Shown here: positions 12,947 through 60,177 of the stretch, one piece after another
How the letters are laid out: each line of letters opens with the position of its first letter
Position numbering within the stretch: the stretch's first letter is position 1
Assembly (NCBI GenBank): GCA_043381765.1
Contig: JBHJMP010000835.1
Span: forward strand, 1-60,177
DNA length: 60,177 bases
Direction of reading: 5' to 3'
From: Collodictyon triciliatum
Lineage: Eukaryota
Translations under genes and position numbers: made by a program
The notes under the pieces: generated by a model
Database searches by the model: none
Told to the model about the DNA's origin: nothing
What the model saw: only the letters and a program-made list of their open reading frames with translations

Positions 12947-13310
12947 AACAGAATCGCCCCTTTGTATGGCATAACCTCACTGCACTTTGAATCGAATAAA
13001 GGGGAATTACACACACAGAGAATGGAATCGTAGATACAAACTGAAATAATTGTCGGGTAGTTATTTTGATTAATACTATTTATCGACTGGATATTATGTT
13101 GTGTTCGCCTAGTCATGCGAATCCATTCTTTTCTTTTCTTTTCTTTTCTTTTCTTTTCTTTTCTTTTCTTTTCTTTTCTTTTCTTTTCTTTTCTTTTCTT
13201 CTTTTTCTTTTTCTTCTTTTTCTTCTTTTTCTTCTTTTTCTTCTTTTTCTTCTTTTTCTTCTTTTTCTTCTTTTTCTTCTTTTTCTTCTTTTTCTTCTTT
13301 TTCTTCTTTT
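12873..13310. repeat. Compound microsatellite cluster: (CT)n(CA)n, then (TTTTC)n and (TTTTTCTTC)n
   Basis: Directly visible at 12873-12945 and 13126-13310. Confidence 0.9.
12957..13006 (+). mobile_element. Short dispersed element, copy A (longest candidate, ~50 bp)
   Basis: Core CTTTGAATCGAATAAAGGGG at 12985-13004, with imperfect flanking direct repeat cacacaaacagaat / cacacacagagaat. Confidence 0.55.
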
Positions 13311-13364
13311 GGCCCTCCTGATCCAACCTCTTGTCCGTGCAGCGACCGTTCTGCGGTTCATAGG

Positions 13365-15304: not shown

Positions 15305-15923
15305 ATAAAACGCAACAATCTACTTCGCAATACATCCTTTTGCATAATCGTTTGCATGGTTCTTTCTAGTAACAAGATTATTTGCTTGTCCGTTCTCTAG
15401 AATATGTGCTCCTTTTTTTATAATTAATTAAAATAGGATTTGAAGCCACACCCTATTACACTCGATTTCACTTTTTTTTTTGGTTTTTTGGTTTTTTGTG
15501 TACCGCCTGTATTTGTTTTCCTTTAAAAAAAAATCGTTCTAATGCACATGTCTTTTTTTTTTTTTCATCTAATTCTGGGTGAAATCACAGCCTTTCAACT
15601 TTTTTACTGCCTTCTGTAAGACCTCAAAGGGGCGATGGAATCCACTTTGACACGCGCAAGAGTGATGATTAAAAGGACACATAAAAAGAAAAGAAAAAGC
15701 AAACTCATGGTAAATATCGGTGCTGTTAGCAAACGAATCAGATTTCTTGCATACTTTGTCCCAAGAAACTCAAAAGAAAGAAAGAAAAAAATAGAACCAT
15801 CTGTGTTGAATGCTCAGTTTATATATTTCTCAACACAACACCAGCTTGTCAAAAATATAAATCTTTTTATTTCATGAGGGTTGGGGAACATCTTTTTTTT
15901 TATCTCTGAGATACCGCCTATCA

Positions 15924-16371
15924 TTAGTGGTAAATCGTGCCTACTTTTGTGTACTTTGACTCAAAAAACGCTTCCCATGAATTCAGAGTCTCCAATTCTG
16001 ATGCATTCAGCCCAAATAAATCCGGGACGAGCTTAATATCAAGAGATCGGTTCAGAATCAAAAACACCCACACAAAACACTATTCATGAGAAAATAGAGT
16101 ATGAAAACAAACATGTATACATATATATAAACAGCGGGCAATACACGCATCATATCTACCCTGAAATAATTGCGCTTACATCCTCAGCTTTTGTAGACAT
16201 CTTTGCAAAACCCCTGTTCGGCTCTCTTCCAGCATATTCGGAATACGGACCCCCAGGCCCATAGTTTGTGTTGTTTGCACCGACATCGTAGATGTTTCCC
16301 TATCAATAAGAATTAACCCGTGAAGAAAAATGACATGAAGCCATTATCCATGAATATATATGTATATAGGT

Positions 16372-16427
<56 letters not shown>

Positions 16428-16833: not shown

Positions 16834-17328
16834 CGTGGGGCTAGCGTTCGACCTATGGTTTGATTTATTGGTTTTTTGGTTTATTGTTTTCTTTTGTTTT
16901 CTTTTGTTTTCTTTTGTTTTCTTTTGTTTTCTTTTGTTTTCTTTTGTTTTCTTTCGAGCAATAATATCGTCGGGCGCTTAGTGAGCGCCTTCTTTACTCC
17001 CAGCGCACAAGAGCAAACCAGAAAGCGACGAAGAGCACAAACGCGATTTAGAAAACGACACGGTGCGCAACGGGGATCAACAAATTCTCGAAAAGCAGGA
17101 ATCATTAACTCCACATATGTAATTTTATTGCGGAATATATGATAAAAAATTGTTCTTGCTGTTTCAAAGAAACTATTTCATGCTATTGCATTGATTTATT
17201 AGATATCCAACATGATTCTCATCATGCATACTGAACTGACCTGCAGAAGCAGCTTCTTGTCTGCTGACGAAACAACACAGCCAGGCAAACATACAGCTAC
17301 AACACCTTCCTTGACAGCCCCAGAAACA

Positions 17329-18890
17329 ATGTTTGGCCGTTACCGCTCTTTCCTCCGAGAATGCGGCTGCCGCGGCACAAGCACAATGAGCCTGACCAGT
17401 GAGCTGCACCCAATCAAGTCCCAACGACTGACATTCCTCGGCCCGCCAGGATCCGGCAAGGTAAATCAGCCACGCGACCATTCCGCCACTCTTTTGCGTC
17501 CTCCGCGGAGTTCTTTGGGGTTTGAGAAAACGCCTCTTATGGGTCGCAGCGCCAGACACTGGGCGAGCCCGGCAGCGTGACAAGTGATGTGATAACGTTT
17601 GTGAAAGAAAAAGAAACACAGCATTCACGTGTAGGGCACGTACTCTTCGTGGCTGAAAAGAAAGTATGGCTTCGATATCCTGTCGTCCGGCGACCTTGTG
17701 CGCAAAATCATCCACGGCCAAGTCACACAAGAGCATGTAAATATCAGCCATATAGCTGCGCGTTTGTGTGCTGCGCACTCACTCCGCGCAACCAAACCAC
17801 ACTCAGCAGGATTCGAAGGCCGTCCATGTTCTGAAGGAATGCATTTCTCACGGCGAACTGGTTCCCGACAGGCTCATGGCTGAGATTCTCGACCAGTTCT
17901 TCTTCGACAGTAGGTGCTCCCACTCCATTTGATTTGTTTATTTGTCCCTGATTACTATACTTGTTATTATCTTCATTTTTTATATTGTTATTAATTGAAC
18001 TGATTTGATTTGATTTGATTTGATTTGATTTGATTTGATTTGATTTGATTTGATTTGATTTGATTTGATTATGTGAAAGTTGAATAAGGCCCAAAAGAAA
18101 ATCGAAAATTAGCAAACCCGAGTAGCAGCGGTATAAATAAACAAATATGGATAGAATTGAAGCCTGGCCAAGGATTTATCCTGGATGGTTATCCACGCTC
18201 GCTGGCCCAAGCACAGCTTCTGCAAGACGGGCCGCATCCAATCGACATGGCATTCCACTTTATTGTGCCAGGTCGAATCTCTTCATCCATCACACTTACC
18301 TATCAGGACTTGCTCACCAAAGACGTCCTACATCAGATAGCATCATCGTTCGTAAACTAAGTGCACGTCGTGTTTGCAAGGGTTGCGGTCATAACTACAA
18401 TCTGTGCGACATTAACGAGGACGGAGTCATCATGCCACCGATTCTGCCGAAGGTTAGACGTCTATCTTTCTTTCCCTACATAATCACGACCTAGTTTTTG
18501 TTCTTTCTTCCTTTCAATCGGTTAAAGAGACGCAGGGCTGACCACCTCAAACATAAATCCCCGTCGTAGAATGCGGGGGTGTGTGACTTTTGTGGAGGAG
18601 GTTTGGCCCAAAGACCGGATGACAGAGAAGACGTGGTGGAGAAACGACTGCGCCATTATCACCGCACTGGTGACCGTATGTTTTCTGCGTCTCTCTAATA
18701 CCCCTGATACAAGCCTTGGAATGCACCTCAGTTGTGCGAGAGGTGGATTGACTGAGTTGAACCCTACACTGCAGAGATTGTAGATTTTTACAAGCATCGC
18801 GGGCGATGCATTGAGATGGACGCTCGGGGCAGTCTGGACAACCGCCTTACACACATTGAAAATCTGCTGCGGTCCATTACGCCTGTTTAA
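17329..18890 (+). CDS. Adenylate kinase with Zn-finger LID, probable organellar presequence, 7 exons
   Basis: Spliced: FLGPPGSGK|GT, LSSGDLVR, GELVPD, GFILDGYPRS, RRVCKGCGHNYN...CDFCGG..QRPDDREDVVEKRL; TAA at 18888-18890; all introns GT-AG. Confidence 0.93.
18001..18070. repeat. (GATTT)n microsatellite in an adenylate kinase intron
   Basis: Directly visible. Confidence 0.9.
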
Positions 18891-19127
18891 ACAGACTCTC
18901 TTCATTATCTTTGCGACCGTGATACTTGGGTCAGATTATTTGTCCCTCGCCCGCCCGCTCCCTTTTACCCCATCCGATTGACCAACGATGTGATGAATAA
19001 AGTATATAATATAAAACATAATAAAATGCAAATTATTTGATAGATGACAGATTGCTCTTGAGTGTATGGTTTCATCATCGCCACCCGTGGCATCTCTTTG
19101 GCTCTTCCACTCGACACGCAAGCGTCC

Positions 19128-22100
19128 TTACTCAGCCGGCGGCTCCCACGATGTCTTGCCCGTGAGTGTGTTGTAGTAGTAAGTCCTTCCGCTAGCTTCG
19201 TCCACAAGTGTCTTCACGTGTGAGGGCATCACAGGTGATGTCGGGGACAAAGGCTTAGCCTGCGACTGCAGCGGAATCGGGACGGGCAGTTGGAAGCCCA
19301 TACTCGCGCGCAGGTGCGACGGCTTCAACACAGTTGGCGCAGGTTCGGGCTTTGGCGGTTCCGTAACTATCGGCGCGACAGGCAGCACTGAGGCTGAAGC
19401 AGAGGCTGCAAGAACGGCCGGCGTGGTGGACGATGGATTAGACGCGCCAGTTTTGTCCTGCGATGGGTGGTTGAGTAAAGACAGAGCGTTCCCGACGTGG
19501 TTGGATATGTCCTCACCCTTTCACACATCTTGTACTTTTGCAGAAGAGATGTCTCGTAGCACAGAAAGACGAAGGCGTTTGCGTGTGGGGGACTTGGGTC
19601 TCCTCGCGATGGTGGGGTGCGTTCGGCCTCGGGGATGTTTTTCAAGGAGACGGCTTTACGGGACTCCTGTGACGATTCGAGCATTTGATGTGACCCATCT
19701 TTCAATGAACATGATGAAAGTAAATAAAACAAAGATGCAAGACGAATGTCTGGTTGTGTTGTGATGATTGGTGGTTTCTTACCTGCTCCCATCGCCCTTT
19801 CACGGTAAAGACGTTTTCGCGGTTGTAGACGCGGTGCATAACTATGACGGGATAAAAGCAGAAGAGGTTTGTAATTAGGTGGGGATGTGTAATGTGCTGA
19901 TGCTGGTCTTTGGTGCTAATATACCAATTTTCAAATCCTCCAGTGCTGAAAAGATTTTGACACGATATTGGGAGATTTGAGACGCAATGGTAGCTTTCTG
20001 TTGTGGGTTTGTAGCGTGCGTAGCATGGTAATATCGGATGATTCCTTCCAGTTTATTAATTTCGCGTTCGTGGTTGATAATCATTTTTTCCAGTTTTGCA
20101 ATCGACGCTGTTTGTAAAAAANNNNNNNNNNNNNNNNNNNNNNNNNNNNNNNNNNNNNNNNNNNNNNNNNNNNNNNNNNNNNNNNNNNNNNNNNNNNNNN
20201 NNNNNNNNNNNNNNNNNNNNNNNNNNNNNNNNNNNNNNNNNNNNNNNNNNNNNNNNNNNNNNNNNNNNNNNNNNNNNNNNNNNNNNNNNNNNNNNNNNNN
20301 NNNNNNNNNNNNNNNNNNNNNNNNNNNNNNNNNNNNNNNNNNNNNNNNNNNNNNNNNNNNNNNNNNNNNNNNNNNNNNNNNNNNNNNNNNNNNNNNNNNN
20401 NNNNNNNNNNNNNNNNNNNNNNNNNNNNNNNNNNNNNNNNNNNNNNNNNNNNNNNNNNNNNNNNNNNNNNNNNNNNNNNNNNNNNNNNNNNNNNNNNNNN
20501 NNNNNNNNNNNNNNNNNNNNNNNNNNNNNNNNNNNNNNNNNNNNNNNNNNNNNNNNNNNNNNNNNNNNNNNNNNNNNNNNNNNNNNNNNNNNNNNNNNNN
20601 NNNNNNNNNNNNNNNNNNNNNNNNNNNNNNNNNNNNNNNNNNNNNNNNNNNNNNNNNNNNNNNNNNNNNNNNNNNNNNNNNNNNNNNNNNNNNNNNNNNN
20701 NNNNNNNNNNNNNNNNNNNNNNNNNNNNNNNNNNNNNNNNNNNNNNNNNNNNNNNNNNNNNNNNNNNNNNNNNNNNNNAAAAAAAAAAAGGATGGTTAAA
20801 AGAGAGAAGAGCTGGGGTAGGGAAGTTCATGTTGTAGGCTGTTAAAATTGTAATAGACTAGATACTATGGTATTTGAAAATATTATGTAGGATGTCATAT
20901 AAATGAAGAGTCCATGCAATATAATTTGACGTTATATTGACAGCGTGCTTGACGTGCATTGATTGGAGTGTTACTTGACTGGCTCCAGGGAGTTGGATGG
21001 CAGCACCATACTTGGTAGCCACAAGGTTTGAGGAAGCATCGGAGGTGGAGGGTTTTCCTTCATTCAAGAATATGTATTGCAAATGTGGTTCATCCTGTGC
21101 AAAAAAAATGAATAAATTACAGATATTTTCAACAGCCAGCAAGCAAATAGCATAGAGGGTAAACATATAGAAAAATAATTAATAAAGAAAAAAAAAGGAG
21201 AATATAATCGAAGATGTGATTTTTCAGGTCTGATTAATTGGTTTAATTCATTAATTATTTACTCTGTTTTTTTGTTTTTTGTTTTTTTTTGTTACTATGT
21301 ATGTGTCATTAATTTGATGCTTGAGTAAAGATAGAAGAAGAAATGAGTGAATTTTTAACCTTCCAACATTCAAGAGCATTGTATTTGACCATTGGCTGAA
21401 TGTTCATAAGATAGAAAATCTATATTTCATGTGATTGAATTAATCATTAATTTTATTTATAGGGGAAAAAATTTGAAAGAGAAAGATAGAAAATATATAC
21501 ATGCATGATTAAGATAGAAAGAACTCTTGTGGATTTTGTTAATTCTGCACATACTTTTTCGTCTGGCTCTTCAGCAACATTTGTCTTTTTAGTGGTTTTT
21601 TTAGGTTTCGCTTGTAGTTCAGCAGTCCCTTTGACCACCCAGTTTTGATGAATCATACCGAGCTTGTTGTTTTAATTTGAGTGGCCAGATTTAGTGCATA
21701 TACTGATTATTGTATGAAATACACATACTTTTTTTTTTAAAAAAAAAAAAACTATGCTGTGGATTAGTTCATATTTATGCCTACGTTTACAAACATTCAT
21801 CATGAAAAAGAGAGAGAGAGAGAAAGGGAGAGATGTCTTGAAAAAATAAAGCCCAAAAAGAAAAAAAACCTCGTCGTCAGGAAACGGATGTTCCAGAATG
21901 GAGGATATCTCTTCCAGCGTCGAGTAAATTGTCCGGCAGCACTGCAGCAAATTTGCATCCTCTCCTTCTCTCTGGGAATGAGTATTGGAGTACAACCCGG
22001 CGAACTGATTAAGGATATCCTCGATATTCTCCTTCTTTGTCTCCTCCTCGGAAATCTTTTTCAAGAGAGACTCCAGCGTTTCTATACCAAGACGGGCGAT

Positions 22101-22329
22101 TCTTATGAGTCACACAGAAAATCGCGATACCTTGGCTGGTAACAAAATCAAAGATATCTCCACATAAAGATAGGAATGAATACTATCACGAGTTTAAGAA
22201 AGTGTTTCGAGGCCTGCCCACACAATAGACCATGAATGACCATTGATTATCCACCCATTCGAATTCAAAAACAAAGCAAAACAAAACAAAACAAAACAAA
22301 ACAAAGCAAAAGAAAAACAAAACAAAAAA

Positions 22330-22410
<81 letters not shown>

Positions 22411-23469
22411 AAAAGCAAAACAAAAGCAAAACAAAGAACAAAAAGAAAAGAAAAGAAAAAAAAAAGATACCCAGCTTGCTCTTCTCCGTGACAAAGACCC
22501 TGAAGTGCTCGGGACTCAGCTCCAAGCGGAGACACAGCAGATCAGCCATCTGCGTCATCGTCATCGCCTCATCGAACTTGAGCGTCTTGAACGTCAGCGG
22601 ACCGGTGTACACCTTCAGCGCAACCTACAGGCCGGAGAAGCCGCGAGCATGCGGTGAGCATCGCCACCGAAAGGGAGAACCACGGATGGACTCTGCACGC
22701 ACATACACAAATATCTATATCTATGAATCTCTCTGTATATGCGCCTGCATTGCAGAGCAGAGCAGAGCAGAGCACAAACCGGACGCGCATTCGGGAGGGT
22801 GACGGAGGCGCGTGCAGCCTTTGCGGGGTCGGCCACAGATGTAGCCACAGATGTAGCCACAGATGTAGCCACAGGCGCAGGGGGGTCGGGGCCGTCGGCG
22901 GGTGCCGGGCGTGCGTCGACGTAGGTGATCTCGCGGGGGGCGTCCTTCCGCGGCTGCTCCGGCGGCTGCACCTCGGCCGTCCGCGCGTTGTACACGTACG
23001 CAAGGCCGCTGCGCACATCGCGGGCGGGACACCACGGCGCATCCTGCACGGCAAGCAGCGCCTGCAGCAGCCCCTCCGCCTCGGCGACAGACGGCACCGA
23101 TGGGGCAGAAGGAGAAGGGGAAGGAGCAGGAGAAGGGGAAGGGGAGGCAGGAGAAGGAGCAGCGGCAGAGGCAGCGGCAGCCGCGGCAAGCAGGATGTCG
23201 TCCGGCGGGGGCGGCAGCGTCGTCTGCGGGGTGCGGGCCGTCGCCACAGCCAGCGACTTTGGGCGCGGTGCGGGCGGCTTTGCGGCCAGGCGGGAGAAGT
23301 GTGCAGCCGCGTTGGCCACGCTCCCTGTTGCCCGCGCTGCGTCGCTCTCGGCCTCGCTTGGCGGCGGAGGCGGTGGTGGAGGCGGTGCCGACCATGAGGT
23401 CTCTCCCGTCTCCTCGTTGAAGTAGTAGGTCTGCCCGCTGCCCGGGTCTAACGCCTGCTTCCACGGCAT
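19128..23469 (-). CDS. WW-domain scaffold protein (N- and C-terminal WW, Pro/Ala-rich linkers, ubiquitin-like/RA-like and helical segments); spans an assembly gap
   Basis: Starts MPWKQALDPGSGQTYYFNEETGETSW and ends VDEASGRTYYYNTLTGKTSWEPPAE*. Internal exons include KVYTGPLTFKTLKFDEAMTMTQMADLLCLRLEL and EREINKLEGIIRYY. Continuity across the gap is inferred. Confidence 0.7.
20122..20778. other. Assembly gap (N run)
   Basis: Ns in the sequence. Confidence 1.
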
Positions 23470-25035: not shown

Positions 25036-25107
25036 TGCCGTCTCTCGGAATCGAACCGAGGTTATCACGGCCACAACGTGAAGTACTAACCACTATACTA
25101 AGACGGC
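25036..25107 (-). tRNA. tRNA-His (GTG), intronless
   Basis: GCCGTCTTAGTATAGTGGTTAGTACTTCACGTTGTGGCCGTGATAACCTCGGTTCGATTCCGAGAGACGGCA folds into a cloverleaf with anticodon GTG. A T-run Pol III terminator follows, and G-1 is not encoded. Confidence 0.95.
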
Positions 25108-25302: not shown

Positions 25303-28300
25303 TCAGTCTTCATATGCAAACTCTGAACCGAGGTGCACAAAACATATATCATCTTCGCTTCCCTCATTCCCGTTTGTATCAGAGTCACCAAGGGCGCAGT
25401 ACTTTTTGGTATTCTTTGCTGATATCTAATTTAAAAAATAGCCTCATTTATCATTCTGTAACATATAGAAAAAAACGTGAAATGTGAAAACAAACCGCTT
25501 TGTATTCTGTTTCGATTTTCTTCAAGTAATCCCACAAAAGTCTATCGAATGTATTCTTGCGTAGGATGGGTTTCAAGAGCTCAAATAGTCTCAATTTTCT
25601 GCAGTCGTTCAACAGACTCACCTGTGTAAGTTCTGTGGTCTTTGTGTCAATGGCTTGCGCAATCTCGTCAATATGCTATATGAAATCAGTGGTGTTGGAC
25701 AACTATCAATCAAAACTTAATGGAGTTCGGAAATTATTAAATACCCTGTCACCTCATGAAAACAAGGATTATACCATGATTATGAAAAGGTGGTGCGTAG
25801 CTTTTACCTGACATCTAGTAAACATACTTTGACATTCACTCGTATCTGAATGAAAAGATAACAATTATTTAACTCTTGTGCATGTTGGAGGGCAGCTGAA
25901 AAGAAAAAAGAGAGCATGAAAAAATTATTTTTTTCTCATCTCTCTCATATGAATATTTTTTTTTGACTTTGCTTTCACGCCTTATGATAGCTTTATTTGT
26001 ATCATAGTTGTAAATTCGACGATGCGATTTTTCTTGAGATAATGTACATATTTAACATGGCCTGAAATTCATAATGCCTCTAATTTGGGGGTTTGTCCAG
26101 CGTTTATACCTTTTACCTCTCTGTCGCAAATTAGACGAGTGTTTCGTAAGACCAGAGAACTTGGCTTGGACTCAGTCAGCAAGCCTTCCTCCTGTGAGTC
26201 ATGCACGGAATCCTGGTATATTAACGGTTGTTATGATAAAAAGACAACAACCAATAGGACTCTGCTCTATATAGTGGAGGGGCAATAATGCAAGATTCTC
26301 ATGTAAAAAGACCCAGAAGTACCAGATTATCATTTGAAGAAGATTCTACTACTAGGCAATTTTCTACTATACAAGGGATGCATTTTTCCTGCTAGTATAA
26401 TATTTTCAATTAAAATGGCGTAAAAATAAGGCTCCAACTACCTATCATACTCAGAGCTACGTGAATTGAATATGCACATGAGTGTTTATATGCAATTGAG
26501 ATTGTAGATGTGAAGCGTAAGTGAAAGTGTAAGTAAGTGTAAGTGTAAGTGTAAGTGTAAGTGTAAGTGTAAGTGTAAGTGTAAGTGTAAGTGTAAGTGT
26601 AAGTGTAAGTGTAAGTGTAAGTGTAAGTGTAAGTGTAAGTGAAAGTGTAATTCTAACTTGTTGCGGCTGAAGTACATCAAGGTCAGATTTTGACAAGAAG
26701 TTAAAATATCCATTTATTTCGTCCCAGAACGCCAAACTTGTATTCGCCTCAGTATGATTTCTATGGTATAAATTAGAAAATGGTGCCTTTTTTGTTTTCA
26801 AATCTTCATAACTATTTCATGAGTTTTTATCATACTTTAACTAGAAGTGTCTATAGGTTTACTGTTATCAATCATGAAATAATAATAAATTGATTTTGGA
26901 AAATTCCTTTGAATCGAATAAAGGAGGGGAAAAATTAATTTTGGAGAATACGAATTCAATCGACAGACTCATGCTTTTGTGCCGCTCTCTCGATGTGCTC
27001 TTCTCTCTATAATCAAGAAACCAATTTTTTCTCATCACATCCCAATATTGAAAATAGCATCACTTCTTTTCCAGAAAAATGTAAAAATGTATATGTTTAA
27101 GATTAAAAAATCAGGTAAATCGTAATAAATTGGAAACAGTTATTCTCTTACGCAATGTATTTGAGCGACACATAACTTTGCATCATTACACTTTCCAGAA
27201 TCCTTTTTACATAATTCATGGTTGTAAACACTCCTGATGCAACAAAGCAAACATTTCAAAATGTAATTTAATAACTTTGACGGAGTAAAAACTCGTTAAT
27301 GAATTTTTAAATCCTTGCTCTCATACTGTACTTTAATGTCCAAGCACATGTTAATTATTTTACATATATGAAGCAGTCTTCTGTCTGTATAACTTTAAAC
27401 ACTATTAATTATAAAAAAAAAGTACTCTTCCCCGGTAACATCGGCGCATGAAGCTGCTAAGATGTCTATAGACCTAACGTGCGATTCGAATGAATCAACC
27501 CCTATGAAAATGATACTTCCATTAACGGACATTTACTTCGAAAAATAATTCATAAATTCTAAAAGAGTCTTTATTACATCTTTAGGTGATAAAAAAATAA
27601 GGATATTTCCTATTTCTTTCTTTTTTATCGTAATAATGTAATGTGCATACTTTAATGCAATCACTTGTCGCATTCGTCTCATTCTATATATTTGAAATAG
27701 TAAAAATTACAAGAAATAAAAACCTGATTCAAAGTCCGTTTTGATATTGTCTGTAGTAATTTTATCCTACATTTTCGGATTTTGGATGAGTTTTCGTTTT
27801 TAAAATCATCATGACAGAAAACAAAGTTAAATTATTGTGATTATGATTTGCTGAATATTGTCTCTGTTATGATAAACAAGTATGTTTCTATTTGGTGTGT
27901 TTGACATATCTCTTAGTATGGTTTCTGCTATTACGTGAAGAGATGTGGCGATTCCTGATAAAGAGATGTGTTCTGAGGCACTTCTTGCACTTTCCAGACA
28001 GGTAATTTCATTTGATTGTCTCGATGAAATGGCACTTGGTATTACATGGGAAACGGAGGCAACAAGGCCAACAATATTTTCAGTATTGGTTCCGTGCTTT
28101 TTCAAGTATTTCTTAGGCATTTTTGTCCAAGTTCCCTGGCTGCGTATGCCCCCCTGTATTTTTAAATACTCTACTGAATTTTTTGGAAATAAACGATACA
28201 ATATTTCGTGATATCAATATTATTGTCACTTACATATCTATACATTTTCTACTAAATTGTATATGTATTGCTCTGTCAAAGTGTATGATTTAAATAATAT

Positions 28301-31390: not shown

Positions 31391-34300
31391 ATGAGTGGGT
31401 ATAGAAAGCCTGGGACAAAGACGGTGGAGGAAGTGATCTCCAAGCGTTTGGTCAAGTCTCCCTTCCAGTCGAATCAAACAGCAGGTCTGTTCTGCAAAGA
31501 TTCGTCGCGGCTTTTCCAACGAGTCGCAGATTATTCACCCGCCTGTCCTTTTCAGACTGTCCCCTTTTTTCTTCTTTTTTCTTCTTTTTCTTCTTTTTCT
31601 TCTTTTTCTTCTTTTTTCTTCTTTTTCTTCTTTTTCTTCTTTTTCTTCTTTTTCTTCTTTTCTTCTTTTTCTTCTTTTTTTCTTCCTCCTCTATATTCCT
31701 TCATTTTTCAAGTATGCTCTCTTGGGTGACCGTCAAGCATCTTTAACCGAATGGTTCATCATGTATCTTAATGATTATGAATGGGTGAAAAGATTCTGTT
31801 CCGTGGAAGTCAAAGGCACGGGCAGCTTCCAAGACTAGACATTCTCGAACACAGGCAATATCAGCGGAAGATGAGGAAATCAACATGGTACTGATTTATG
31901 TTGATAATACATGTGATTTAGAGTCGCCTTCGAATTATTGAACCCTGTACTCCCAGAAAATTATCGATTAACTCATATACGGGATACATAATTTTTGATG
32001 AATGCATCACCCGGTTATACTCTATAAGCGCTCTCCAAGCATATTCAAAATCCTAATAAAAATCCACAATTTAACAGTGCGAATCTAGAAGATGCTCATT
32101 TACAATTGAAAAACATTACACAGCGATTATCTAAGCTAAGCCGAGCCGAGAGCGCCTCAGCCATTGCATATAATACATTTGGAGACACATATCAAAGCGC
32201 TATGGACGGAACGTCTGCATTCCATCACTCTGATAAACTAATTCGTGCAACTTCAGCCTCCGCAACACTCTCATCCAAAGCCCTGGTTCCATACCAACAA
32301 AACGCAACAAATCTAGAGTTTCTACCTGTAAAACATTCAATAAATTATCATTCATATCCTGATAATATGAGAAGATTCGTAATGTGCATTTACTAATAAT
32401 GCGTTTCAGAAATTGGTATTCATATTCATATTCATATCATTAACGACGCATGAGTTAATATTTAACTATATATTTTGTGTACATTTTGTCTTTTTTCAGC
32501 CAACACGAATAACCAATCGGCCTCAGAGGTGGCAGCATACTATAGGAAGTATCAACATGAAAGAAGTTAGTATAAACGTAATATTGATGTGAAATATTCT
32601 ATATTTTAGGAATCCTACATATTACTCAATATTACAATCCATATTATCAAAGAAATCGATATTTTGAAACGAAAAATATAAAATTCTATGTGACATGTGA
32701 TAAACGTGTACCAATATCACGATGTTAGATCGTTTAATTCACAAACAAATGACTTGAAACCAAAAAAAAAATATAGCTGAATTACCAACAAGAGCAACAA
32801 TTGAAGCAATTAAAATCGCAGTGTATAGAAATATCCAAGAGACTCAAAGGGTTTGTCAAAAAAAAGTGTTACAATAAGATGTCTACATGTGTCTCATTTT
32901 TATCATCATGGGAACCTGGTCTTTATCTATGAATGGGGAAAAAAAAAAGAGAGAGAGAAAGAAGAGCTAATTATGATTCTATTTCCTTTTTCTAGAATCG
33001 AAAAGCTTACCACTCAGATAAAAGACAGCAAAATGCAAGAACTTGTTCTACCTAAAAAAGTACAGCGTTCATTTCACGCAGTTGAGAGCAAGCTATATGC
33101 ACTTGGGCGCACTTTTTTAACAGGAGATGACAAGGTATCATTTGAAGAAAAAAAATCTCGCCAAAATTGCAGATCATCTCCTACTGAACATTGTTAATGG
33201 GAGGGTGTAAAGTTATGTATGAGGCATAGCCGAATATTCATCGTCATACAATACGATTCATTATTTCAGGCAAGAGATTCTGCTGCTACAAATATATCCC
33301 GATGCATTCGAGGATGGTTGGCAAGAAAGAAATATACGAGGGCCTTAATGTCGCTACACGAATGGAGAAACCAGGAAACTATATCATTCAGGTCATTCGT
33401 ACTGAATTGGGTCTCTAATCATGAATCGAAAAACAAGAAGGTATAGTTAATATAACATTATTTGCTGAATCAGGTTTATAATCATATACGTGCAACTCAA
33501 TTATAATTCAACAATTGCTATCATTTATTTGACTATTCTATTACTTTATCCAAGATTGAATGGGTTCGACACAGTCATTTCAAACGCCTTGCGAACATTG
33601 CGTTCATGGAATGGAAGGCCATCACCAAAGGAAACATAACGTCCAATTTGCAACTACATAAGAAGGAAGAGCAAATTCAAATTCGTCGGGTTTGTTTGTT
33701 GCTCATAAATTCTCCATATACAATTTTTTATGAAACCATTTCAATCCAACCCTGGTTTTCCATTTTCTTTGTTACTATATATACAATTTTTTATATGTAT
33801 GAATCGTCCAACTTTAAAACTATCACCAAACAAATCACGCAAAGATTATTTTCTATTACTTCTGTAGTGGAATAATTTGCTTAGAAAAATTATTCTAAGA
33901 TGGAGGGATGCCGCTTACGGACCCCATAGTAGAAAGAAAATCAGCCAAAGCTACAAGATACGTCACGACGAGTAATGACTAATATCGTTAATTTCATCAA
34001 CTGGAACTAATATCAATAAGTTTACACTTGGGTTGTTATATTGGAGTTCAAATCATTCGGTCAATTTACGTTTTTCTTCTTTTTGGTTCCATTAAAAATA
34101 TCTTTATTCCCTCGCTCTTGTGCACAACAAACATAACACGCATGTATTTAAATTTTCCAGAGCGTATCACCAAGTTGCATTGAGAAATTTGAGAGATGAT
34201 CCCGACCCCAAAGAAGTCCACAAGGTAGCCTTACATGGATGGAAGTATTTTAATGCAGATAAAAAGGACAAATGTCAGCTATAAATAAATGAATTAATTC

Positions 34301-34913: not shown

Positions 34914-34945
<32 letters not shown>

Positions 34946-44678: not shown

Positions 44679-47600
44679 TTATTCATGATAATTGCGAGGG
44701 CTGTCGATTTCCGGCGCAGCAGGCTGTACAGTGATTTGCCTTGTTACTACATTGCGTTCAAAAAATGGTCTAATGAACGCTAAAGTGAACGCAGTTGCGA
44801 GCCAGAGGGCATTTAAACCAATAAGTAGCCCGGTTATCCATTCTTGAGAACCAAGGAAACTTGAGAGGAGCACCAAAAACAAAGAGAGAAAAATAACATA
44901 CAAGCTTGATAATTCAAGATTGTTTTCAAGGTCTGAATTGTAAGGGCGGTGCTCTCGTTGCATCCAGATGGATGCCTTTAGACAATAAAAACGAAACAAA
45001 ACAAAAATACATCGATGGTGTTTAGAAATGGTCAAAATGACATAAAAGAATACTTATATTTTAAGTGTAAATGAAAAAACAAACCTGGATGATAATGACC
45101 AAAAAGAGAAACAAAACTGTTGGATGTGTATATGGTATGACACTGACAAAGAAAGAAAATGCCACCCGCCTTGCTATAATAATAAATTCCCAGTGCTTGC
45201 AGTTCTATATTCGAAAAAAAAACTTTAAAAAAATTATGTTTTTTCAAGAGCATATAATCCGAGTAATTTTTTTTTTAAAAAAAAAAAGGGTCAAGCATCA
45301 CGCTTTCAGCATGCTACTTACATATTTATATGGAAGGTAAATAAATCCGTAACGTCCTTTTGTCTGGCTGTCTGATTTTTCTTCGCTTTTTTTTACCACA
45401 GACCATGTATAGAGAGGAAATCCGATTATGAATATCACCAGAATAAGAAAGGAAACACCAAGCATATTGGAGTATTCTTCAGAATACGGACTGCATTTAA
45501 TCCAAGGGGCGTAGTTCAAGTACCAAGTTTCGTCCCCCTCATCAAAAAGTGGGGGGCCCATAAACACCAAAAACCTCTTTTGCCATGGAGTAGTAGATAA
45601 AGAATAGAAGGTTCAGATTTATGAAAATAACCTACATTTAGAAAAATTATCCTTGTCATTTATGTGCATTTTCCAAACCCAACACCAGAAAATGAATGCA
45701 ATGATATAAAATAATTGACAATTTTTTACATTAAGTATCTAATTTTTTTAAAAAAAAATTAGAGAGAAAGACTATTTATACCTTGTCTTTCATCTTACTT
45801 GAGCCGAATGCATATACCATAAATGCAACCATTATGAATATTGGAATTCTGACAAAGCTTAAGAGTAGTGCGTAAAGTGGACTGGATGAGCCGATCATGC
45901 ATGATGTGTTTGGAGAAATTATAGAACCAAGAGAAAAGAGTACATAGATGACGCTACTTTCATTTTCCGGCGAGGCTATTCCAGAGGATATTACCGATAT
46001 GGTTTGCGCGTGAAATAGGATGATTCTGATCTTGGCTTTTATTGTATTGAATCAAATTTTAAAATCAAATAGCTATTATATGTATAAATAGATTTGATAA
46101 AAATAAATCATTAAAAAAAAAAGACAAAATGAAGATAGAGTGTAAAAAAACCTGTTTTTGACGTTTCAGTGAAATAATAGTAGGCCAAATATAAACAAAA
46201 TGCGGTGACACCGATGATAACTGTCAAGTAAATCGTCACATCTTGACACTTTGTGCAACCCCTTCCTTGTCTTCCATACCCATCAGAACATTCAGAGCAC
46301 CCATGACCTTGGAAACCAAGAGTGCATAAGCGCGTGATATTTGGATTGGTGTTCGTAAATGTACTTCTCTTCGAAATTTCTGTTATACAAGAATCAGGAC
46401 GAGAGCAAGGAATTATGGTTTTTATATTTTCGACATTTGGTGAAGCAAAACATTTTCTCAAGGATATTCCATCAACACAATCACACCCCCTCGGACAACG
46501 CACACATTTGTTTCCAAATCCAAAGTAGTTTGGAAGGCATTCGCACAAAATGTGGTCATAGTAAGATGGATTCAGTCCAACCTTAACCTTTTCGAATCCT
46601 GGCTGAAGTATGATGGAAGGGCACAAAAAAGATTCCGTTTTATCATTTAAAGTAAATGGATTTCCATAGCTCATGAATTCTGGGAGTATGGGACTACCTC
46701 CATGATTCATACTCGGGCAATCGAGTCCCAAGTATTCAATTTTTGTAAATCTATCATAAGAATTAGGAACCTTTCCTTTGATTGGATTTCCCGATACGTC
46801 AAATACTTCCCATTTCAACAGACTGGTGAGCTCTCCAAGACCTGATATCTTGTTATTACGAGCACTAAACGTTTTCAAGGTCAAAACATAGTCAAATATC
46901 CACCAATTTATTTCACCAGCCAGCGAATTGTCATCGAGCAACAGGGTCTGGTAAGCGTAGTTTAGGTCATCACTGTTTGGTGATATAAAGCTACCAATAT
47001 CCCCAGAGAACGAATTGTTTCTCAAATCTATCAGAATGAGATCGGCGAGATTCCAAAAGTAAATTGGCATACTGCCATATATCTTGTTATGCCCCAAGTT
47101 GATGGATTTAAGTGTGTAGAGTCCTTGAAAAAAGTCTGGAACAGTTCCGATTATGGAGTTTCTCGATAAATCAATGTCTTGTAATGATGTAGTATCCCAA
47201 GAATATGGAAAACTGCCCAATATTTGGTTTTCACTAAGGTCTAGTCTTTTCAAAAGCGTCAGGTTGAATACTGGAAGTGAGCCTCCTAAACTATTTCTGA
47301 AAAGCACAATTTCTTGGATGCAGGGACACTCAGCAAAATTTGAAATTGGGCCAGAAAGCTGGTTGTCATATGCTGAAAACACTAGCATATTTGTTACATT
47401 GGAAAATATTGGAATGGACCCTATTAATCATCAAGTCTCCATATATTAGGTTTTAACTATACTCCAAATGTTTTCGAATCGAATAAAGGGGGAAATCATA
47501 GACCACATATATGGATTTATTTAATCAGGTTTACACCATTTATATTGTTTCCGGATATATCCAAAGTAGTCAGAAAAATCAAATGGCTAAAGTTTGGAAG

Positions 47601-50162: not shown

Positions 50163-50521
50163 NNNNNNNNNNNNNNNNNNNNNNNNNNNNNNNNNNNNNN
50201 NNNNNNNNNNNNNNNNNNNNNNNNNNNNNNNNNNNNNNNNNNNNNNNNNNNNNNNNNNNNNNNNNNNNNNNNNNNNNNNNNNNNNNNNNNNNNNNNNNNN
50301 NNNNNNNNNNNNNNNNNNNNNNNNNNNNNNNNNNNNNNNNNNNNNNNNNNNNNNNNNNNNNNNNNNNNNNNNNNNNNNNNNNNNNNNNNNNNNNNNNNNN
50401 NNNNNNNNNNNNNNNNNNNNNNNNNNNNNNNNNNNNNNNNNNNNNNNNNNNNNNNNNNNNNNNNNNNNNNNNNNNNNNNNNNNNNNNNNNNNNNNNNNNN
50501 NNNNNNNNNNNNNNNNNNNNN
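50163..50521. other. Assembly gap (N run)
   Basis: Ns in the sequence. Confidence 1.
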
Positions 50522-51877: not shown

Positions 51878-53006
51878 TTACTCTTTATCTTCTTCATCAC
51901 TGCCATAATCTGCAAGAGAAAAAAGCGTGTTGGTGTTGCTTTCAAGGGATGGCCCTTTCTCTCCTATTTGGACAATCTTGTTCACCTTTTCTTTTTTACC
52001 CCCTTTCTCTTTCATCTTTGTTGCCTTCTTCACAACCACAGTGTGAATCATCGTTGGCTTCTTCGGTTTCTTGCTCTGTGCCTCCGGGGAATCTGCAAAA
52101 CTTGGTAACTCTACGGTTGATGCAACTATTTGCCTATTCGCCCCCTTTGACTTCAATTGAACCTCTCTCTGATGCCGAAGGAACAAAAAGACAAGAAAAA
52201 CGAGTGAGTTGTTTGCTGGATGAAAGTATGACGAGTACAGACGAATATTGAATGAACAGGTTTCAATGGAAAATGCTCATGCAAGAAGCTGAATGGTGGT
52301 TTGTACAAGAGTTTATTCAAGAGGTGATAGATCCAACTGGGAATATACAATTGTAATGGAACAGAGTGGAAAAAGAAAGAGAAATAAGCCACCAGCTCCA
52401 AAATACCACAAATAAAAATAGTTTGCGTTTGTTGCTGCTTCCTACCTCAAACATGTCCAGGTATTTGCGCTCCTCTTCCTCTTGGAGTCTCTTCTGTGCA
52501 CGCTCTTGTTCTTCCAGTTGATTAAGAAACCCCACCTCTTCGGCATCCAGTGCTTTTGGTGGGCCTGCAACGTCAGCGTGTCAATACAGGTTTGAAGATT
52601 ATGGTACAGACATGGCAATGCTTCCATTTGATATTAGGAGGGGCGCTACCTACGGAATGCGTTGTGCTGCTCTTTATACTGCTGCTCTTCCTTGACTTTG
52701 TTCTCTTCAAGTTGTGTGTAAAGCGGCTTTGCTGCTTCGTCTCGGATGCGCGGCCCAGAAATACCAAGCTTTTCCCGCTCCTCCTTCAAAACTTTCTCAC
52801 TCACAAACTGCATCGCTTGCCCGCGGAACTAGTAGCAGCAACAATATATAATAGCATTACTTATGGTGTGTGTTGAACAGAAGAAAACTGAATGAAAAGA
52901 AATGGATGAAATGAAAGGTGTCTCGTTGGTGTTTATTCAAGCAACGGCAGAAGGCCGGCTTTGATCTATAGGTTGAGGCAGTCGTTTTCTCAGTCAGATT
53001 TACCAT
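51878..53006 (-). CDS. PSME3IP1: PSME3-interacting protein / FAM192A / Fyv6 (NIP30) homolog
   Basis: ATG|GTAAAT at 53006, then FRGQAMQFVSEKVLKEEREK...KPLYTQLEENKVKEEQQYKEQHNAF|RPPKALDAEEVGFLNQLEEQER; acidic C-terminus SLADYGSDEEDKE*. Confidence 0.8.
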
Positions 53007-53046
53007 TTTTTCTATTGTTCGATTCAAAGCTCTTCAGATCCACCAT
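52989..53046 (-). mobile_element. Short dispersed element, copy D (minus orientation), with ~17-bp degenerate duplication
   Basis: Minus strand: atggtggatctgaagag [ctttgaatcgaacaatagaaaaa] atggtaaatctgactgag. Confidence 0.6.
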
Positions 53047-53482: not shown

Positions 53483-55514
53483 ATGTCCGAATACACCGTC
53501 ACAACTGAGAAAGGTCGAGACTATGGCAAGTTCAAAGTTTCCACCGTGGCCGAGCTTCGTGACCTTTTCGGGAAAAAGAGTGGGCCTCATTTTGTTATGT
53601 TGTCGTATTCATTCTGTTTAATTACGTATTAGTATGCCTCATTATGTTCTATGCTAAAGCAAGACTAGAACATAGTCTGTTTTCGTCAGCATATTCTCAA
53701 CACTTTTTTTTTTTTTTTGCACTTACACACAACAGACCCAAAGTTTTCCGACGTGAACCGCCAACGTTTCACGTATAACGACAGCAAAGGTTTTATCTTC
53801 GCTGCGAAATAAATTCACTGTGTCACATATTTATGCTGATTTGTGGAGTGTCCTTTCCTTTATTTCCTAGTTATTTAGGGTCTATCATTCCTATTAAACG
53901 AATTTATTTCAAAAAAAAACCCCCCCTTTTTTAACGAAACTTTGCTTGTCTTACTGAGAACTATTCCTTCCGTTTCGTCAGGCGCGAAGCAAGTGTTAAA
54001 GCTCGAAGCCAACCTATCTGAGCTGGACATCAAAGACAAAACCTTGTACTTCAAAGATCTTGGTAGATACTTTTCATTTTATCATCATTTTTTTATGCAG
54101 AGAAGACTTTTGTGAATAATACTTCATCAAATGCCAAATGCATCTCGATTCTGATTTGTGTATTCTTTTTTTTTTTCCCGCCATGGCCATCTTGTCTATC
54201 TGACAGGTCTTCAAGTTGGCTGGACCACGGTATGTTGTTTCGATGTGTGACATATTACTATGTGGAATGAATCTGCATGCATTTATTTTCACATATATAT
54301 ATTATTTACGTTTTATCTTAAAATCCAGGTATTCTTGACCGAGTATGCTGGCCCTCTTGTCATCGTTCTCCTGAACTACATTTACAGGGAGTCTATCTAC
54401 GGCTCTGTTGTCTCCAATGGCTCGTGGGCAGCTACCGTTCAAATGTCAGTATAACAAACCAAAAAAAAAAACCTGTTATCGTTTTCCTCAACTTTTTTTT
54501 GAACTTCTTACCATACAAAAAGAAAACCCCCACTGAACTTGGACCACTACTTTGTATCTGTAGGATTGGCGCATTTGCCTGGGTTGCTCACTACGCCAAG
54601 CGCCTTCTCGAAACCATCTTTGTCCACCACTTCAGCAATGCCACAATGCCCATCCTCAACATCTTCAAAAACAGTGGCTACTATTGGGGCTTTGCTGCAC
54701 TCAACGGATATTATCTGTTCCACCCTAAATACACTGCTCCGAGTGAGAACCAAGTTTATCTTGGCTTTGGCATCTTTGTCGTGAGTTATCAGACGCATTT
54801 CAGAATCCCTTTTTTTTCTGTTGTTGTTATTCGATAGTATTGAATCCGCCAGGTTTTCACACATTTCTTCTATCAGGTTTCTGAGCTGTGCAACTTTATC
54901 ACCCACGTTATGCTTCGCAACCTGCGCCCAGCTGGCAGTCGTGTCCGCCAAATCCCCAAAGGATTCCTGTTTGAACTAGTTTCTTGCCCCAACTACTTCT
55001 TTGAGGTTCTTGCCTGGGTTGGATTCACCATCATGACCCAGATGGCCGGAGGTTAGTTCATCATCGTTGATTATATCGCACGAAGGGAAGCACTCTTGTA
55101 CTACTTTTTTTTTCTTTTTTCTTTCCTTTTTTCTTTTCTTTTCTTTTCTTTTCTTTTCTTTTTCCTTTTTCTTTTTTCTTTTCTTTTTCCTTTTTTCTTT
55201 TTCCTTTTTTCTTTTTCCTTTTTTCTTTTTCCTTTTTTCTTTTCTTTCTAATTTATATTGTGATTTCTACGATGACTATTTACTTCAGTCGCCCATTTCG
55301 TGGTTAGAAAAAGAGAAAGAAAGTATCATGGATTATTCTAACATTGGGCCTTGCATTCCGGTTGAATTTATTAAATAATCTTCTAGCTGCTTTGTTCACT
55401 CTCGCCGGAGCTTTTCAGATGCTTGCTTGGGCCCTTGGCAAGCACCGCAACTACAAGAAGGAATTCCCGGCCTACCCGAAGAATCGCAAGGCTATGATTC
55501 CGTTCCTCATCTAG
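53483..55514 (+). CDS. TECR: Very-long-chain trans-2-enoyl-CoA reductase (TECR/Tsc13), 8 coding exons
   Basis: Fully traced: YFKDLG|LQVGWTT|VFLTEYAGPL...HYAKRLLETIFVHHFSNATMP..NIFKNSGYYW...LRNLRPAGSRVRQIP..VSCPNYFFE...WALGKHRNYKKEFPAYPKNRKAMIPFLI-TAG. Confidence 0.96.
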
Positions 55515-55914: not shown

Positions 55915-56156
55915 TCACACTCCCTTCGCAAAACGGTCCAGAAGGCGGTGTGCCAAATAACATGCCAATGAGTGATAGAATCTCAATGGAAGGCCTGATT
56001 GTGTAGACTCTAGAATGGATTCCAGGAATGACGCTTCGAGGCGATAGCACTGTACCTAGGGTTTAATTGTCCAGATGAAACGACTGTGCAGGTAGGAAAT
56101 AATAATGACAATATAAATCTTTGTTTTTTTTCTTTTTTTTTCTTTTTTTCTTTTTT

Positions 56157-56221
<65 letters not shown>

Positions 56222-59200
56222 CTTTTTTAAGACCCCACCTCATCGACATCAGCCCTGACCGATGCTGCGCGAGTGCCACCTGTGATGAAAGTCATTTCAC
56301 CAAACATTTCACTTTCTCGCAGAACTCGCACGACGGAAACTGGGGTATCACGAAGGCCGCCCGTCTCAACACGCACCCTTCCTTTCGCAACCTTATGTAT
56401 AATGATGGGTAGGTCGTTGCTTTTGATTTCACAATATCAACAAATAGAGTGAAAATCAAAAAAAAAAAAAAAAAGCTATATAACGTAGCTTTTTATATGT
56501 AGAAATAATTAACTGAAGAGGACGGGAATGTAATCCCAGAGCTCAGGACTTTACCTGATAGACAACTCGGTCATCTTCTCCTTCCCTAATGATGTACTCA
56601 TCCCGTTTGTATCTCACAAGCCGGGCGCCTGCATACCGCGAGCAGAAATAAAAGAACGAGGATACACATCAAAGGAAGAGTTAATTTTTCTCTAATAATC
56701 ACAGGCTTTTAACAAATCAGTAAAGAATCACATCAGTAAGTAAAATACGAACTATAGAAAGGAAAATACAAAACGGAGGGAAGTTGAGATTAAAAGACAA
56801 AAGACTTCCATTTCATACCTTGTATAAAGAGAGCATAGTCATCCGACTGCAGGGGCGGAATGAGAAATGTGGAATGATGTTTTTTTGACTGTGTGGTTCT
56901 GCGATTGGGTGGTCGAATAGATAATTCAACCCCCAATATAAATTATGTATTAATACAATGCGCTATGTATGGTGTATTTTTATATTTTCTCGCACAGCAA
57001 GTTTCCTAAGGTATTTATTTGGTCTCTTACGGTGATTCTGGCACCGCAATTTTCATCGCAGCTTCGTTACTGGACGGGCTGATAGAAGCCCTTCGGTTCG
57101 ACCTTCACAAACGAAGCAATTTTGAGAATAAGCATACGAACCAACAAGCTCCAATGATAAAATATCTCTAGCACTTCAAAAAAATGGTGAAGCACATACA
57201 TTTGATTCGGGCGGAGAAATCCTGTTGCTACTTTCGATTTTGCCTTCCTCCATGTAGATATGAGTTCGTTACCCACACTTGACGCATCGTCAAAATCAAA
57301 GAAGGTAACCTTCTCATTGAATTTTTTTTTTTTTTAGGAGTTAGCTACCATTTTTTTATCCCATCTTCTAATTCATTTAATTTCATGTCGTATTTCGAAA
57401 ATAAACATAGAAAAATTCGTTGTAAATGAGCAAATAAAAAATAAAGTCAAACTGTCTTATCGATGCAGTCCACGGTGATTTCTGAGGGAGTGTAGTTGAT
57501 GGATGATATTGTGATAAAGGGAAAAACTTCCTATCAAAGTATTCAATGGTTACTTGTCAACACCACTGCAAATGTCATATGATGGTTGAAAAGTATGTAA
57601 AATGTGTCAATATTTTCATTCGTGTTTATCCGATTCCAAGTAATTTTATTGTATAGGTTACTTTCTTTGAATCGAATAAAGGAAAAAAAATTGTATAGGT
57701 TACTTTCATCATAACCCCTAAAATTTTGGCCTGGAATATGAGTCCCTCCCTTGTAATCGTCAGAATACCGACCACTTGCACCTTTTTCATCATGATGCAC
57801 GGGTAAGCTGCCACTATTGTGTGTACACGAGAATGTCATGTAAAAAAATTCTTAAATGATATATTTATTTATTCATGGTTTAGTATATATCAATACATAA
57901 TTCATCCCGAGTATGCGGCATTTGTTTGTGTTGAACTCCAGAAGATGGTAAGTTCTCATCCAATGCAATCTTGATTGAAATATGAATTAACATTATCAAA
58001 AGTGCGAATATCTGATAATGTTTGCATTCTATTTTGTCAGGTATACTTAAATTACTTGAGAATATTGGAGAGGGTGATTCCTATCCAATAAATTGGCCTG
58101 CGTTACTTGTCCGATGAACTTGAATGACTTAATGATATCAGAAGCTAGATGAACATGCAGGCGGCCACCCAAACCGGGGTTAGATAGACATATTTTGGAT
58201 ATTGCATCCGGCGTGAATTCATAAATGACAGCTGAATATGTTGATGTTAGATTTCAAGCATCAAGTAAGATTGATTTCAATGAGTGAGTCCTGTTTACAC
58301 ATATTCAATTATAGCCAGCCCCTTCAAATTACCAAAGTGTAAACGTATTATATTTACCAGATTCACATGCAACGTAATTCCACGGCGAATTCTTTCCTAT
58401 CAAAAAGCCGTATGTCCCAAATAGGTCCCCAGGCTGAATAATGCTTATCGTTTTCGATGAGAATTCCAACCCTATTTGCCCCGATTGTAAGTAGTAGAGA
58501 CCATAAAAAGACGAGTCTGCAACTAGAACAGGGTCTCCCTTCGCATAAGTTGTGTACGATGAGTCTTCCTTCAAGCTCTTTACAGTTAATATGATAGTCA
58601 GTTCTATGAATTGAAGAGATTCTCTTTGAGCTAGTAAATGAAAAAATAAATGCTGAAAATATTGAAAAATGATGATATTGTTGTATATATGTACTTTGAT
58701 AAATATAACATCAAATGGAAAGATATAACACCTGGTATTTCAAAATAAATTTTCAACAAGTATCTGATTAGTTAATATTTTCTATATAATACCTGGATAT
58801 CTTCGTTCTTCAGTATTCCATCCTTTTCTGATAATTGAAGTGTGTTTGCTGAATTTCGCACCTTGTGAACGCCTGTCTTCGATGGAATCCAATACCTTTT
58901 TTTTTTAAGGTCTGTTAGAGTTGACAAAGAAATATTTATAATCATAATCATAATAACAAAAGGAATCCATTGCGAATCGAACAAAGAAATAATTATAACA
59001 AAAGGAATGGAAAAAGTTTGAATAAATATGTTGTGGCAACTACCTTCGCATCCAAAAGAACGCTTCTATGGCTTCATTCAAAAAGAAAGTGAATGTATGC
59101 TGCCCGCTGGTGATTTCTATACAAGTCACACCTTCTAGTCTAATCGACAATATTCCTTTGAAAGTCAACATCTAATATGATAAGAATTCATGAATTTATT

Positions 59201-60177
59201 GATAAAAAATTATGGAATGGATATGGGCTTATTTACTGCACACTCATAAACATGTATTATTATCGCATTAAGTTGTGTGAGTAAGCCTAAAAATAAGACG
59301 ATCTCAATTTTTTACCAACCTCTTTTTTCTTTATTCCATACTTGGATGTCATGAAAGTAATGCAAGTTTCCCATATGCATATATGAGTGGACGCCGAGCT
59401 TCGTTTCCCCTCGTTTGTATTACCTACAAAGGTTTTTCTTTGAAAAAAAAATATAATTCTGAAGGGGAAAACGAATTTGAAGAGAGACTGATTTGTTGCT
59501 GTGTCTGCTTCTTTTTCTTTTTCTTTTTTTTTTTCTGATTAGAAAGGCGTAGATGAAAACCTGTATATTCAGCAACCGAGCGTATTTCCTGAGACATGCC
59601 GTATCTTTCGTACATTTCAGATTTCTTTCTGCGCTGCTCATCAGAGAAAATGCTCTTCAAAAACATAAACTTTTTTAGAATATTTGATTCATCAAATAAT
59701 GTGCATTTTAGAGACATTAAACTTCGTGATTTTAATTTAAAAAATACACTATTAATACCATATTTATACCACTTAAACAGACTTCAACATCTTCAACATG
59801 CCTACCTCTAATTGGTTGCTAACAGATTCTTCGAAAGTAAGTCGGCGCAAATCAGCCAGTAATCCGCTAGACTGCTTAACATTAGTGAGTGACAAGTACT
59901 GTCCAATAATGTTCTTGGAAAGGCTGAGGCGATGCATTAAAAATTCTGCAATATTTATGATAAATTTAGTTGAAATATTTACTCGGTTCTCCCTTTGTAA
60001 TCAAATATTTATTGAAGAAAATACCGAAAAATAGTATAGCTATATGTAATATCTTGTAACTCACGTATATTCTTCTTTGAATCAAATAAAGGGGGGGGGG
60101 GGGGGGGGAAGAGAAAGATAAATATTTTCTACAACATTATTATTAATACAATCTCCCTTGTATATTTTGGCGTATTT
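55915..60177 (-). CDS. Cyclic-nucleotide-binding (cNB) / GRAM tandem-domain protein, 5'-truncated by the window edge
   Basis: GRAM-like exons (ICIWETCITFMTSKYG; VVGILTITREGLIFQAKILG) alternate with cNB domains (YAKGDPV...IQPGDLFG; YKRDEYIIREGE...ESEMFGEMTFITGGTRAASVRA); ends FYHSLACYLAHRLLDRFAKGV-TGA at 55915. Confidence 0.8.
57648..57707 (+). mobile_element. Short dispersed element, copy E, with perfect 18-bp target-site duplication
   Basis: attgtataggttactttc [tttgaatcgaataaaggaaaaaaa] attgtataggttactttc. Confidence 0.85.
58953..59008 (+). mobile_element. Short dispersed element, copy F, with >=14-bp duplication
   Basis: ataacaaaaggaat [ccattgcgaatcgaacaaagaaataatt] ataacaaaaggaat. Confidence 0.65.
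60075..60110 (+). mobile_element. Short dispersed element, copy G, with an 18-nt poly-G tail
   Basis: ctttgaatcaaataaa followed by G18 and AA; flanking duplication weak. Confidence 0.55.

Follow-up and report, generated by a model that had tools for sequence, protein, structure and literature searches.

A short motif containing AATAAA recurs at a density of about one copy per 8 kb along a stretch of DNA from Collodictyon triciliatum (contig JBHJMP010000835.1 of assembly GCA_043381765.1, positions 1 to 60,177 of the forward strand; this whole 60,177-nucleotide (nt) stretch is the window below), raising the question of what the motif is and how it reached so many places in the same neighbourhood. 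The window is eukaryotic nuclear DNA of ~37% G+C that is rich in microsatellites, with 199 TRF arrays covering 4,944 bases. An earlier note, made from the letters alone, had proposed that the motif marks a family of retroposon-like stubs left by a non-LTR element (one that lacks long terminal repeats). We consider, with a probability of roughly 85%, that these stubs are the extremely 5'-truncated 3' ends of an L1-like long interspersed nuclear element (LINE), inserted by target-primed reverse transcription (TPRT), and that the motif, as part of that reading, corresponds to the terminal 18 nt of that element's 3' untranslated region (UTR).

Each stub is of the type GAATCGAAYAAAG followed by a tail, and reading of the individual sites showed an 18-nt core, CTTTGAATCGAATAAAGG, present exactly or as a near variant in five strong copies that we designate A to E. 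A search of the whole window for the 15-mer TTGAATCGAATAAAG, allowing up to two mismatches, returned five positions, every one on the + strand (12987, 26909, 47474, 57667 and 60077); this compares with a mean of 0.52 occurrences in 100 dinucleotide shuffles, none of which gave five. The 18-mer core, at up to two edits, appeared at a mean of 0.02 per Markov simulation (n=60), where the accompanying fuzzy listing of window matches was not exhaustive, missing the copies at 47472 and 9773 that other searches showed. Three weaker copies lie at 58970 (+, GAATCGAACAAAGA), 53029 (-, CTTTGAATCGAACAATAG) and 9772 (+, CTCTTGAGTCGATAAAGG). The core positions listed in the earlier note are confirmed for the five strong sites, and 58970, 53029(-) and 9773 are the weaker members that it had described. 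The stubs at 58970 and 53029(-) have the variant 11-mer GAATCGAACAA in common, which points away from random decay and towards a second subfamily, and we infer that at least two LINE subfamilies have been active, one carrying the ...GAATAAAGG variant and the other the ...GAACAA... variant.

We then compared the DNA flanking each copy with that at 3000 sites drawn at random from outside tandem arrays, using the same geometry as the stubs, with the left repeat ending within a few bases of where the element starts and the right repeat beginning no more than 20 nt past the core end. Copy D (57666..57689, +) is a 24-nt insert (TTTGAATCGAATAAAGG plus A7) whose first core C is common to insert and duplication, and it lies between exact 18/18 repeats, ATTGTATAGGTTACTTTC at 57648..57665 and its partner at 57690..57707, which none of the 3000 controls equalled. 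The diverged-subfamily stub (58953..59008, +) has an exact 14/14 duplication, ATAACAAAAGGAAT (58953-58966 and 58995-59008), around a 28-nt insert, CCATTGCGAATCGAACAAAGAAATAATT; this repeat, scored 19/21, was equalled by 4 of the 3000 controls. Copy B (26907..26931, +) carries the exact 18-nt core followed by the tail AGGGGAA and is bounded by 16/18 repeats, AAATTGATTTTGGAAAAT at 26887..26904 and its counterpart at 26932..26949 (14/3000). Copy A (12955..13008, +) comprises what appears to be the final 48 nt of the 3' UTR of the LINE (12955-13002) and the tail GGAATT (13003-13008), with 13/15 repeats at 12940..12954 (ACACACAAACAGAAT) and 13009..13023 (31/3000). The minus-strand stub (53006..53029, CTTTGAATCGAACAATAG plus A6) has a marginal 11/13 repeat, equalled by 102 of the 3000 controls. 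No flanking repeat above chance was detected in the same test for copy C (47472..47495, +; core variant TTTCGAATCGAATAAAGG and tail GGGAAA), for copy E (60075..60108, +; the one-mismatch core CTTTGAATCAAATAAAGG, which passes into 18 consecutive G at 60091-60108) or for the degenerate copy (9772..9795, +; CTCTTGAGTCGATAAAGG plus A6), which differs from the core by one mismatch and two indels and is, as judged from its sequence, a plausible family member.

Half of the copies of the motif (4/8) are thus genuinely accompanied by locus-specific duplications. A looser earlier test, swamped by microsatellites, had given p values of 0.011-0.066 for the same four copies and is superseded by the tight-geometry comparison. 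Exact direct repeats of at least 12 nt with a short spacer and outside tandem arrays number nine in the window; five of these are inside an internally repetitive large gene, and two of the remaining four flank the motif (57648/57690 and 58953/58995). Flanking repeats had been described for most copies in the earlier note, and that description holds for the four copies that beat random sites (18/18, 14/14, 16/18 and 13/15); of the rest, one is marginal and three are at chance. Its further statement that several pre-insertion sites read TTTT/A is not confirmed, as TTTT precedes the repeat at just one (57665) of the four sites where duplication is clear.

Two other pairs of exact direct repeats in the window enclose different sequence. 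The first (33716-33794) is a 16/16 repeat, ATATACAATTTTTTAT, with a 47-nt spacer and without a tail, and the second (21408-21494) is a 12/12 repeat, AAGATAGAAAAT, whose 63-nt spacer includes ...TTTATAGGGGAAAAAA..., a run of G and A resembling the stub tails. Neither spacer recurs within the window, and both pairs may be footprints of other insertions.

The identity of the motif emerged from a metagenome contig. Searching metagenome contigs for exact matches to the 18-mer returned 35 loci, one of which is related to the stubs: a 1157-nt contig, L008, with the element on its minus strand. Window positions 12955-13002, in copy A, are identical to the reverse complement of L008 at 46 of 48 positions (999-1046, E 6.6e-17), and 57665-57690, in copy D, are identical at 26 of 26 to its 3' end, including the A tail. 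In L008, an open reading frame (ORF) is followed by a stop at 207-205, a 93-nt 3' UTR ending in ...CTTTGAATCGAATAAAGG, a run of ten A and then AT-rich DNA. The ORF, open from the contig edge and directly upstream of this short 3' UTR on the same strand, matches the zf-RVT domain (PF13966) with an E value of 1.5e-7 and 32.4 bits against a cutoff of 27.5. The proposal in the earlier note of target-primed insertion by a non-LTR element gains support, the longest copy matching the end of a 3' UTR that has a LINE ORF2 C-terminus upstream. The L008 ORF2 contains a frameshift at ~549-606 (minus), just after zf-RVT, where the protein resumes in another frame; because an intact relative, P0002, is continuous across this point, the L008 copy is defective.

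The remaining 34 metagenome loci, which have neither a tail nor upstream similarity, were rejected as chance or coding matches. A single 18-mer match in viral contigs was due to chance, as were all 13 matches in prokaryotic genome contigs to an 18-mer from the longer part of the UTR, and no loci related to P0016, another relative of the L008 protein, were found in viral or genome contigs. When the upstream parts of copies C and E were aligned to the L008 UTR with MAFFT, a similarity of ~50% was obtained, which is not convincing. Window positions 18869-18885 match part of the L008 ORF (reverse complement 168-184) at 17 of 17 positions in a short-word BLAST search (E 0.004), with no protein-level similarity around them, and this match is probably due to chance.

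These comparisons bear directly on whether the motif was ever mobile. It contains AATAAA and sits in AT-rich non-coding DNA, features that a conserved host signal (for example a terminator or polyadenylation element, or a site bound by a protein) would also display, and a motif of this size might recur by chance. Against both possibilities stand the excess of five copies over 0.52, the locus-specific perfect direct repeats immediately around the motif and its identity to the terminus of a LINE 3' UTR, and we give such an immobile or accidental origin almost no credence.

The protein encoded upstream of the UTR places the element among L1-like LINEs. When 1.84 billion representatives were searched with HMMER, 14 matches at E <=0.001 were obtained, the close ones being short fragments that are 59-98% identical to the query over the matched stretches; among the relatives P0002-P0008 and P0016-P0019, identity to the L008/P0016 line is 45-98% for those that were aligned. 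Four relatives are full length (P0010-P0013; 1226-1275 amino acids, 29-38% identity), and all four contain Exo_endo_phos and RVT_1, with zf-RVT below the cutoff in three, one of them P0010. These 1226-1275-amino-acid proteins, which combine apurinic/apyrimidinic (AP) endonuclease, reverse transcriptase (RT) and zf-RVT regions, are colinear in their C-terminal third with the L008 ORF, through a weak link of 30% identity and E 2.8e-8. Two longer members of the cluster, P0018 (E 6e-23) and P0016 (E 3e-18), align colinearly with P0010 over residues 772-1196, its post-RT region. Among solved structures, P0010 is closest to human LINE-1 ORF2p (E 3.4e-57, residues 3-871), with R2 proteins matching far more weakly (~1e-23). 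A search for homologous proteins classed as longer returned none.

Closer inspection of the inserts shows that they share their 3' end, ...AATAAAGG plus a tail, and differ at the 5' end, copy A retaining 48 nt of the element as opposed to ~18-24 nt in copies B and D. A common 3' end with a tail, variable 5' ends, duplications of 14-18 bp and AT-rich targets together make up the anatomy of TPRT. By analogy with the established behaviour of L1-type elements, the endonuclease of the element would nick the bottom strand of an AT-rich target, and the freed 3' end would prime reverse transcription at the tail of the element RNA. Synthesis would halt after ~18-48 nt of 3' UTR, and staggered second-strand cleavage followed by repair would yield the target-site duplications of 14-18 bp. 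Truncation is extreme throughout, with seven of eight copies holding ~30 nt or less of the element, tail excluded, and no longer LINE piece within the 60 kb window.

A rival reading is a discrete micro-SINE (short interspersed nuclear element), that is, a defined RNA of ~20-25 nt plus tail that shares the LINE 3' end and is mobilised in trans. Copies B and D begin at or within 1 nt of the same base, the C of CTTTG, and stubs outnumber longer fragments in the window by 7:1, as a defined unit would predict. Two common start points (B and D) are too few to establish a defined 5' end, however, and copy A reaches 30 nt further 5' while remaining colinear with the LINE UTR. Moreover, the stubs lack a head and any promoter-like part (ARAGORN and Rfam reported nothing at the stub sites, only a tRNA-His), and the L008 3' UTR has no special fold, with a z score of 0.57 and 146 of 200 shuffles folding equally well. 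We therefore regard a separate micro-SINE as improbable. The earlier note had left the choice between a micro-SINE and an extreme 3' stub; the stub half of that alternative is supported by colinearity with the L008 3' UTR, and the micro-SINE half is disfavoured by the missing head and the differing 5' ends.

A different route to such short inserts would be endonuclease-independent capture, in which fragments of LINE complementary DNA or RNA are patched into double-strand breaks. The very short inserts, the heterogeneous tails and the presence of two strong copies without duplications are what this route would produce. Four copies have duplications of 14-18 bp, unlike usual break-repair insertions; in L1 insertions such duplications mark staggered nicking and are usually missing from insertions made by break repair. 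The exact 3' end and tail are also kept in all inserts, as if synthesis had begun at the 3' end of the RNA. Break capture is accordingly a very improbable source of the family. TPRT of truncated LINE 3' ends is the reading that we retain.

Several observations weigh against this reading and temper the probability that we attach to it. The AP-endonuclease and RT domains were seen only in the distant full-length relatives (~25-30% identical), the close-family contigs being short and ending before the RT. L008 comes from a metagenome rather than demonstrably from the Collodictyon triciliatum genome, in which we infer that the parent LINE sits. No ORF2 remnants were found in the window, where the best tblastn match with 11 query proteins had an E value of 0.15. 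Two of the five strong copies (47472 and 60075) have no detectable duplication, and a TTTT/A target is found at only one of four well-defined sites. Finally, G-containing tails are not predicted by a plain poly(A)-dependent L1 mechanism.

The tails are as rich in G and A as the earlier note had stated, in all five strong copies. They read GG+GGAATT in copy A, GG+AGGGGAA in copy B, GG+GGGAAA in copy C and GG+A7-8 in copy D, and copy E ends in 18 consecutive G (60091-60108). Purines occupy 28 of the first 30 tail positions (the first six bases past the core in each of the five strong copies) compared with a purine fraction of 0.50 in the window. Plain A tails belong to copy D (A7-8), the youngest-looking copy with its 18/18 repeat, and to L008 (A10), and the G-containing tails accompany imperfect or undetectable duplications. 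Decay of an A tail was ruled out for copy B, in which four of the seven tail bases are G and the adjoining 18-nt core is unchanged. The AATAAA ends 2 nt before the end of the element, a position from which cleavage would fall inside the source's own tail or past it. Transcription of a source copy could then continue through that tail ahead of cleavage, and variants of the tail would be passed on. The RT could instead stutter on the terminal GG, or the LINE RNA itself could bear mixed tails. The G/A tails were most likely either inherited from a source copy or produced by RT stutter on the terminal GG. The papers listed in our literature searches included none that dealt specifically with G-rich LINE tails or with such short stubs, from which we make no claim that they are absent from print.

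Comparison with known systems reveals a familiar type of element with unusual products. The family resembles L1-clade LINEs, typified by human LINE-1 ORF2p (PDB 8uw3 and others), in that its distant full-length relatives have an AP-endonuclease, an RT and a C-terminal zinc-binding region, and in that its copies show 5' truncation, variable duplications of 14-18 bp, AT-rich targets and, in L008 and copy D, an A tail. It differs from them in the shortness of the stubs (~30 nt or less in seven of eight), in the G runs of several tails and in having TTTT/A at one of four targets. Maize Cin4 and Chlorella Zepp are L1-like LINEs with heavy 5' truncation, such elements forming populations in which 5'-truncated copies predominate, with target duplications of variable length. 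The zf-RVT (PF13966) C-terminal domain of L008 likens the family to such plant and algal LINEs, a likeness drawn from the known features of these elements; the extreme shortness of the stubs and their G/A tails set the family apart from what is known of Cin4 and Zepp. The SINEs of stringent-type LINE/SINE pairs are also short sequences bearing a LINE 3' end that are mobilised with duplications. Unlike those SINEs, the stubs have no RNA polymerase III-type head and no significant 3' stem-loop, and the 5' start of copy A is 30 nt from that of copies B and D.

Under the TPRT reading, the window contains a previously unnamed L1-like LINE family that is seen through its extreme 3' stubs, the underlying event being of an ordinary kind. 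A motif too short for repeat finders can thereby be traced to a parent LINE, and abortive TPRT can leave footprints of 24-55 bp at appreciable density in non-coding DNA. For annotation, this accounts for a recurrent AATAAA-bearing motif and for several short direct repeats. G-containing tails and extreme truncation also bear on how an RT engages the 3' end of its RNA and on the limits of its processivity. A bolder and rather unlikely extension is that this is a freshwater-protist L1-like lineage in which TPRT nearly always aborts within 20-50 nt, peppering the genome with micro-insertions that carry untemplated or mixed G/A tails. If so, the mixed tails would point to G-tailing of the template RNA or to RT stutter on the terminal GG during priming, and if the phenomenon were general, micro-stubs would constitute an overlooked class of insertion mutation that is missed by repeat finders. 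With one window and one parent contig in hand, we present the family as a lead rather than a result.

The surroundings of the stubs offer additional observations. Seven of the eight stubs are on the + strand, and the recognisable genes, encoding WD40/Ephrin_rec_like, WW, MORN, LRR and cNMP-binding proteins and tRNA-His, are on the - strand. As the stubs carry AATAAA, their survival in antisense would fit selection against premature polyadenylation, and the signal planted by each stub could explain why seven of eight are antisense to neighbouring genes. The stub at 47472 lies 45 nt outside the LRR frame (46114-47427, -), past its upper edge, and is possibly inside an intron.

Among the genes themselves, an intronless frame of 2293 codons (1314-8195, -) encodes a WD40 propeller at the N-terminus, 36 cysteine-rich stretches of the Ephrin_rec_like type and, at the C-terminus, a hydrophobic region with multiple passes, and its DNA contains internal repeats (3243-6408) that are 85-87% identical at offsets that are multiples of ~279 nt. 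The other recognisable frames encode WW-domain, MORN, LRR/LRRNT_2 and cNMP-binding proteins. ARAGORN and Rfam placed the tRNA-His at 25036-25107, with no other Rfam family in the window. Runs of N, representing assembly gaps, occupy 20122-20778 (657 nt) and 50163-50521 (359 nt), the former inside a very AT-rich region (20001-22000, G+C 0.23). A purine-rich low-complexity repeat is common to 13129-13310, 31566-31679, 22273-22467, 56120-56228, 55104-55243 and 16887-16954 (81-98% identity), the pair 31576-31678 and 13208-13310 being 98% identical, and (TC)n(AC)n tracts at 12900-12950 adjoin copy A.

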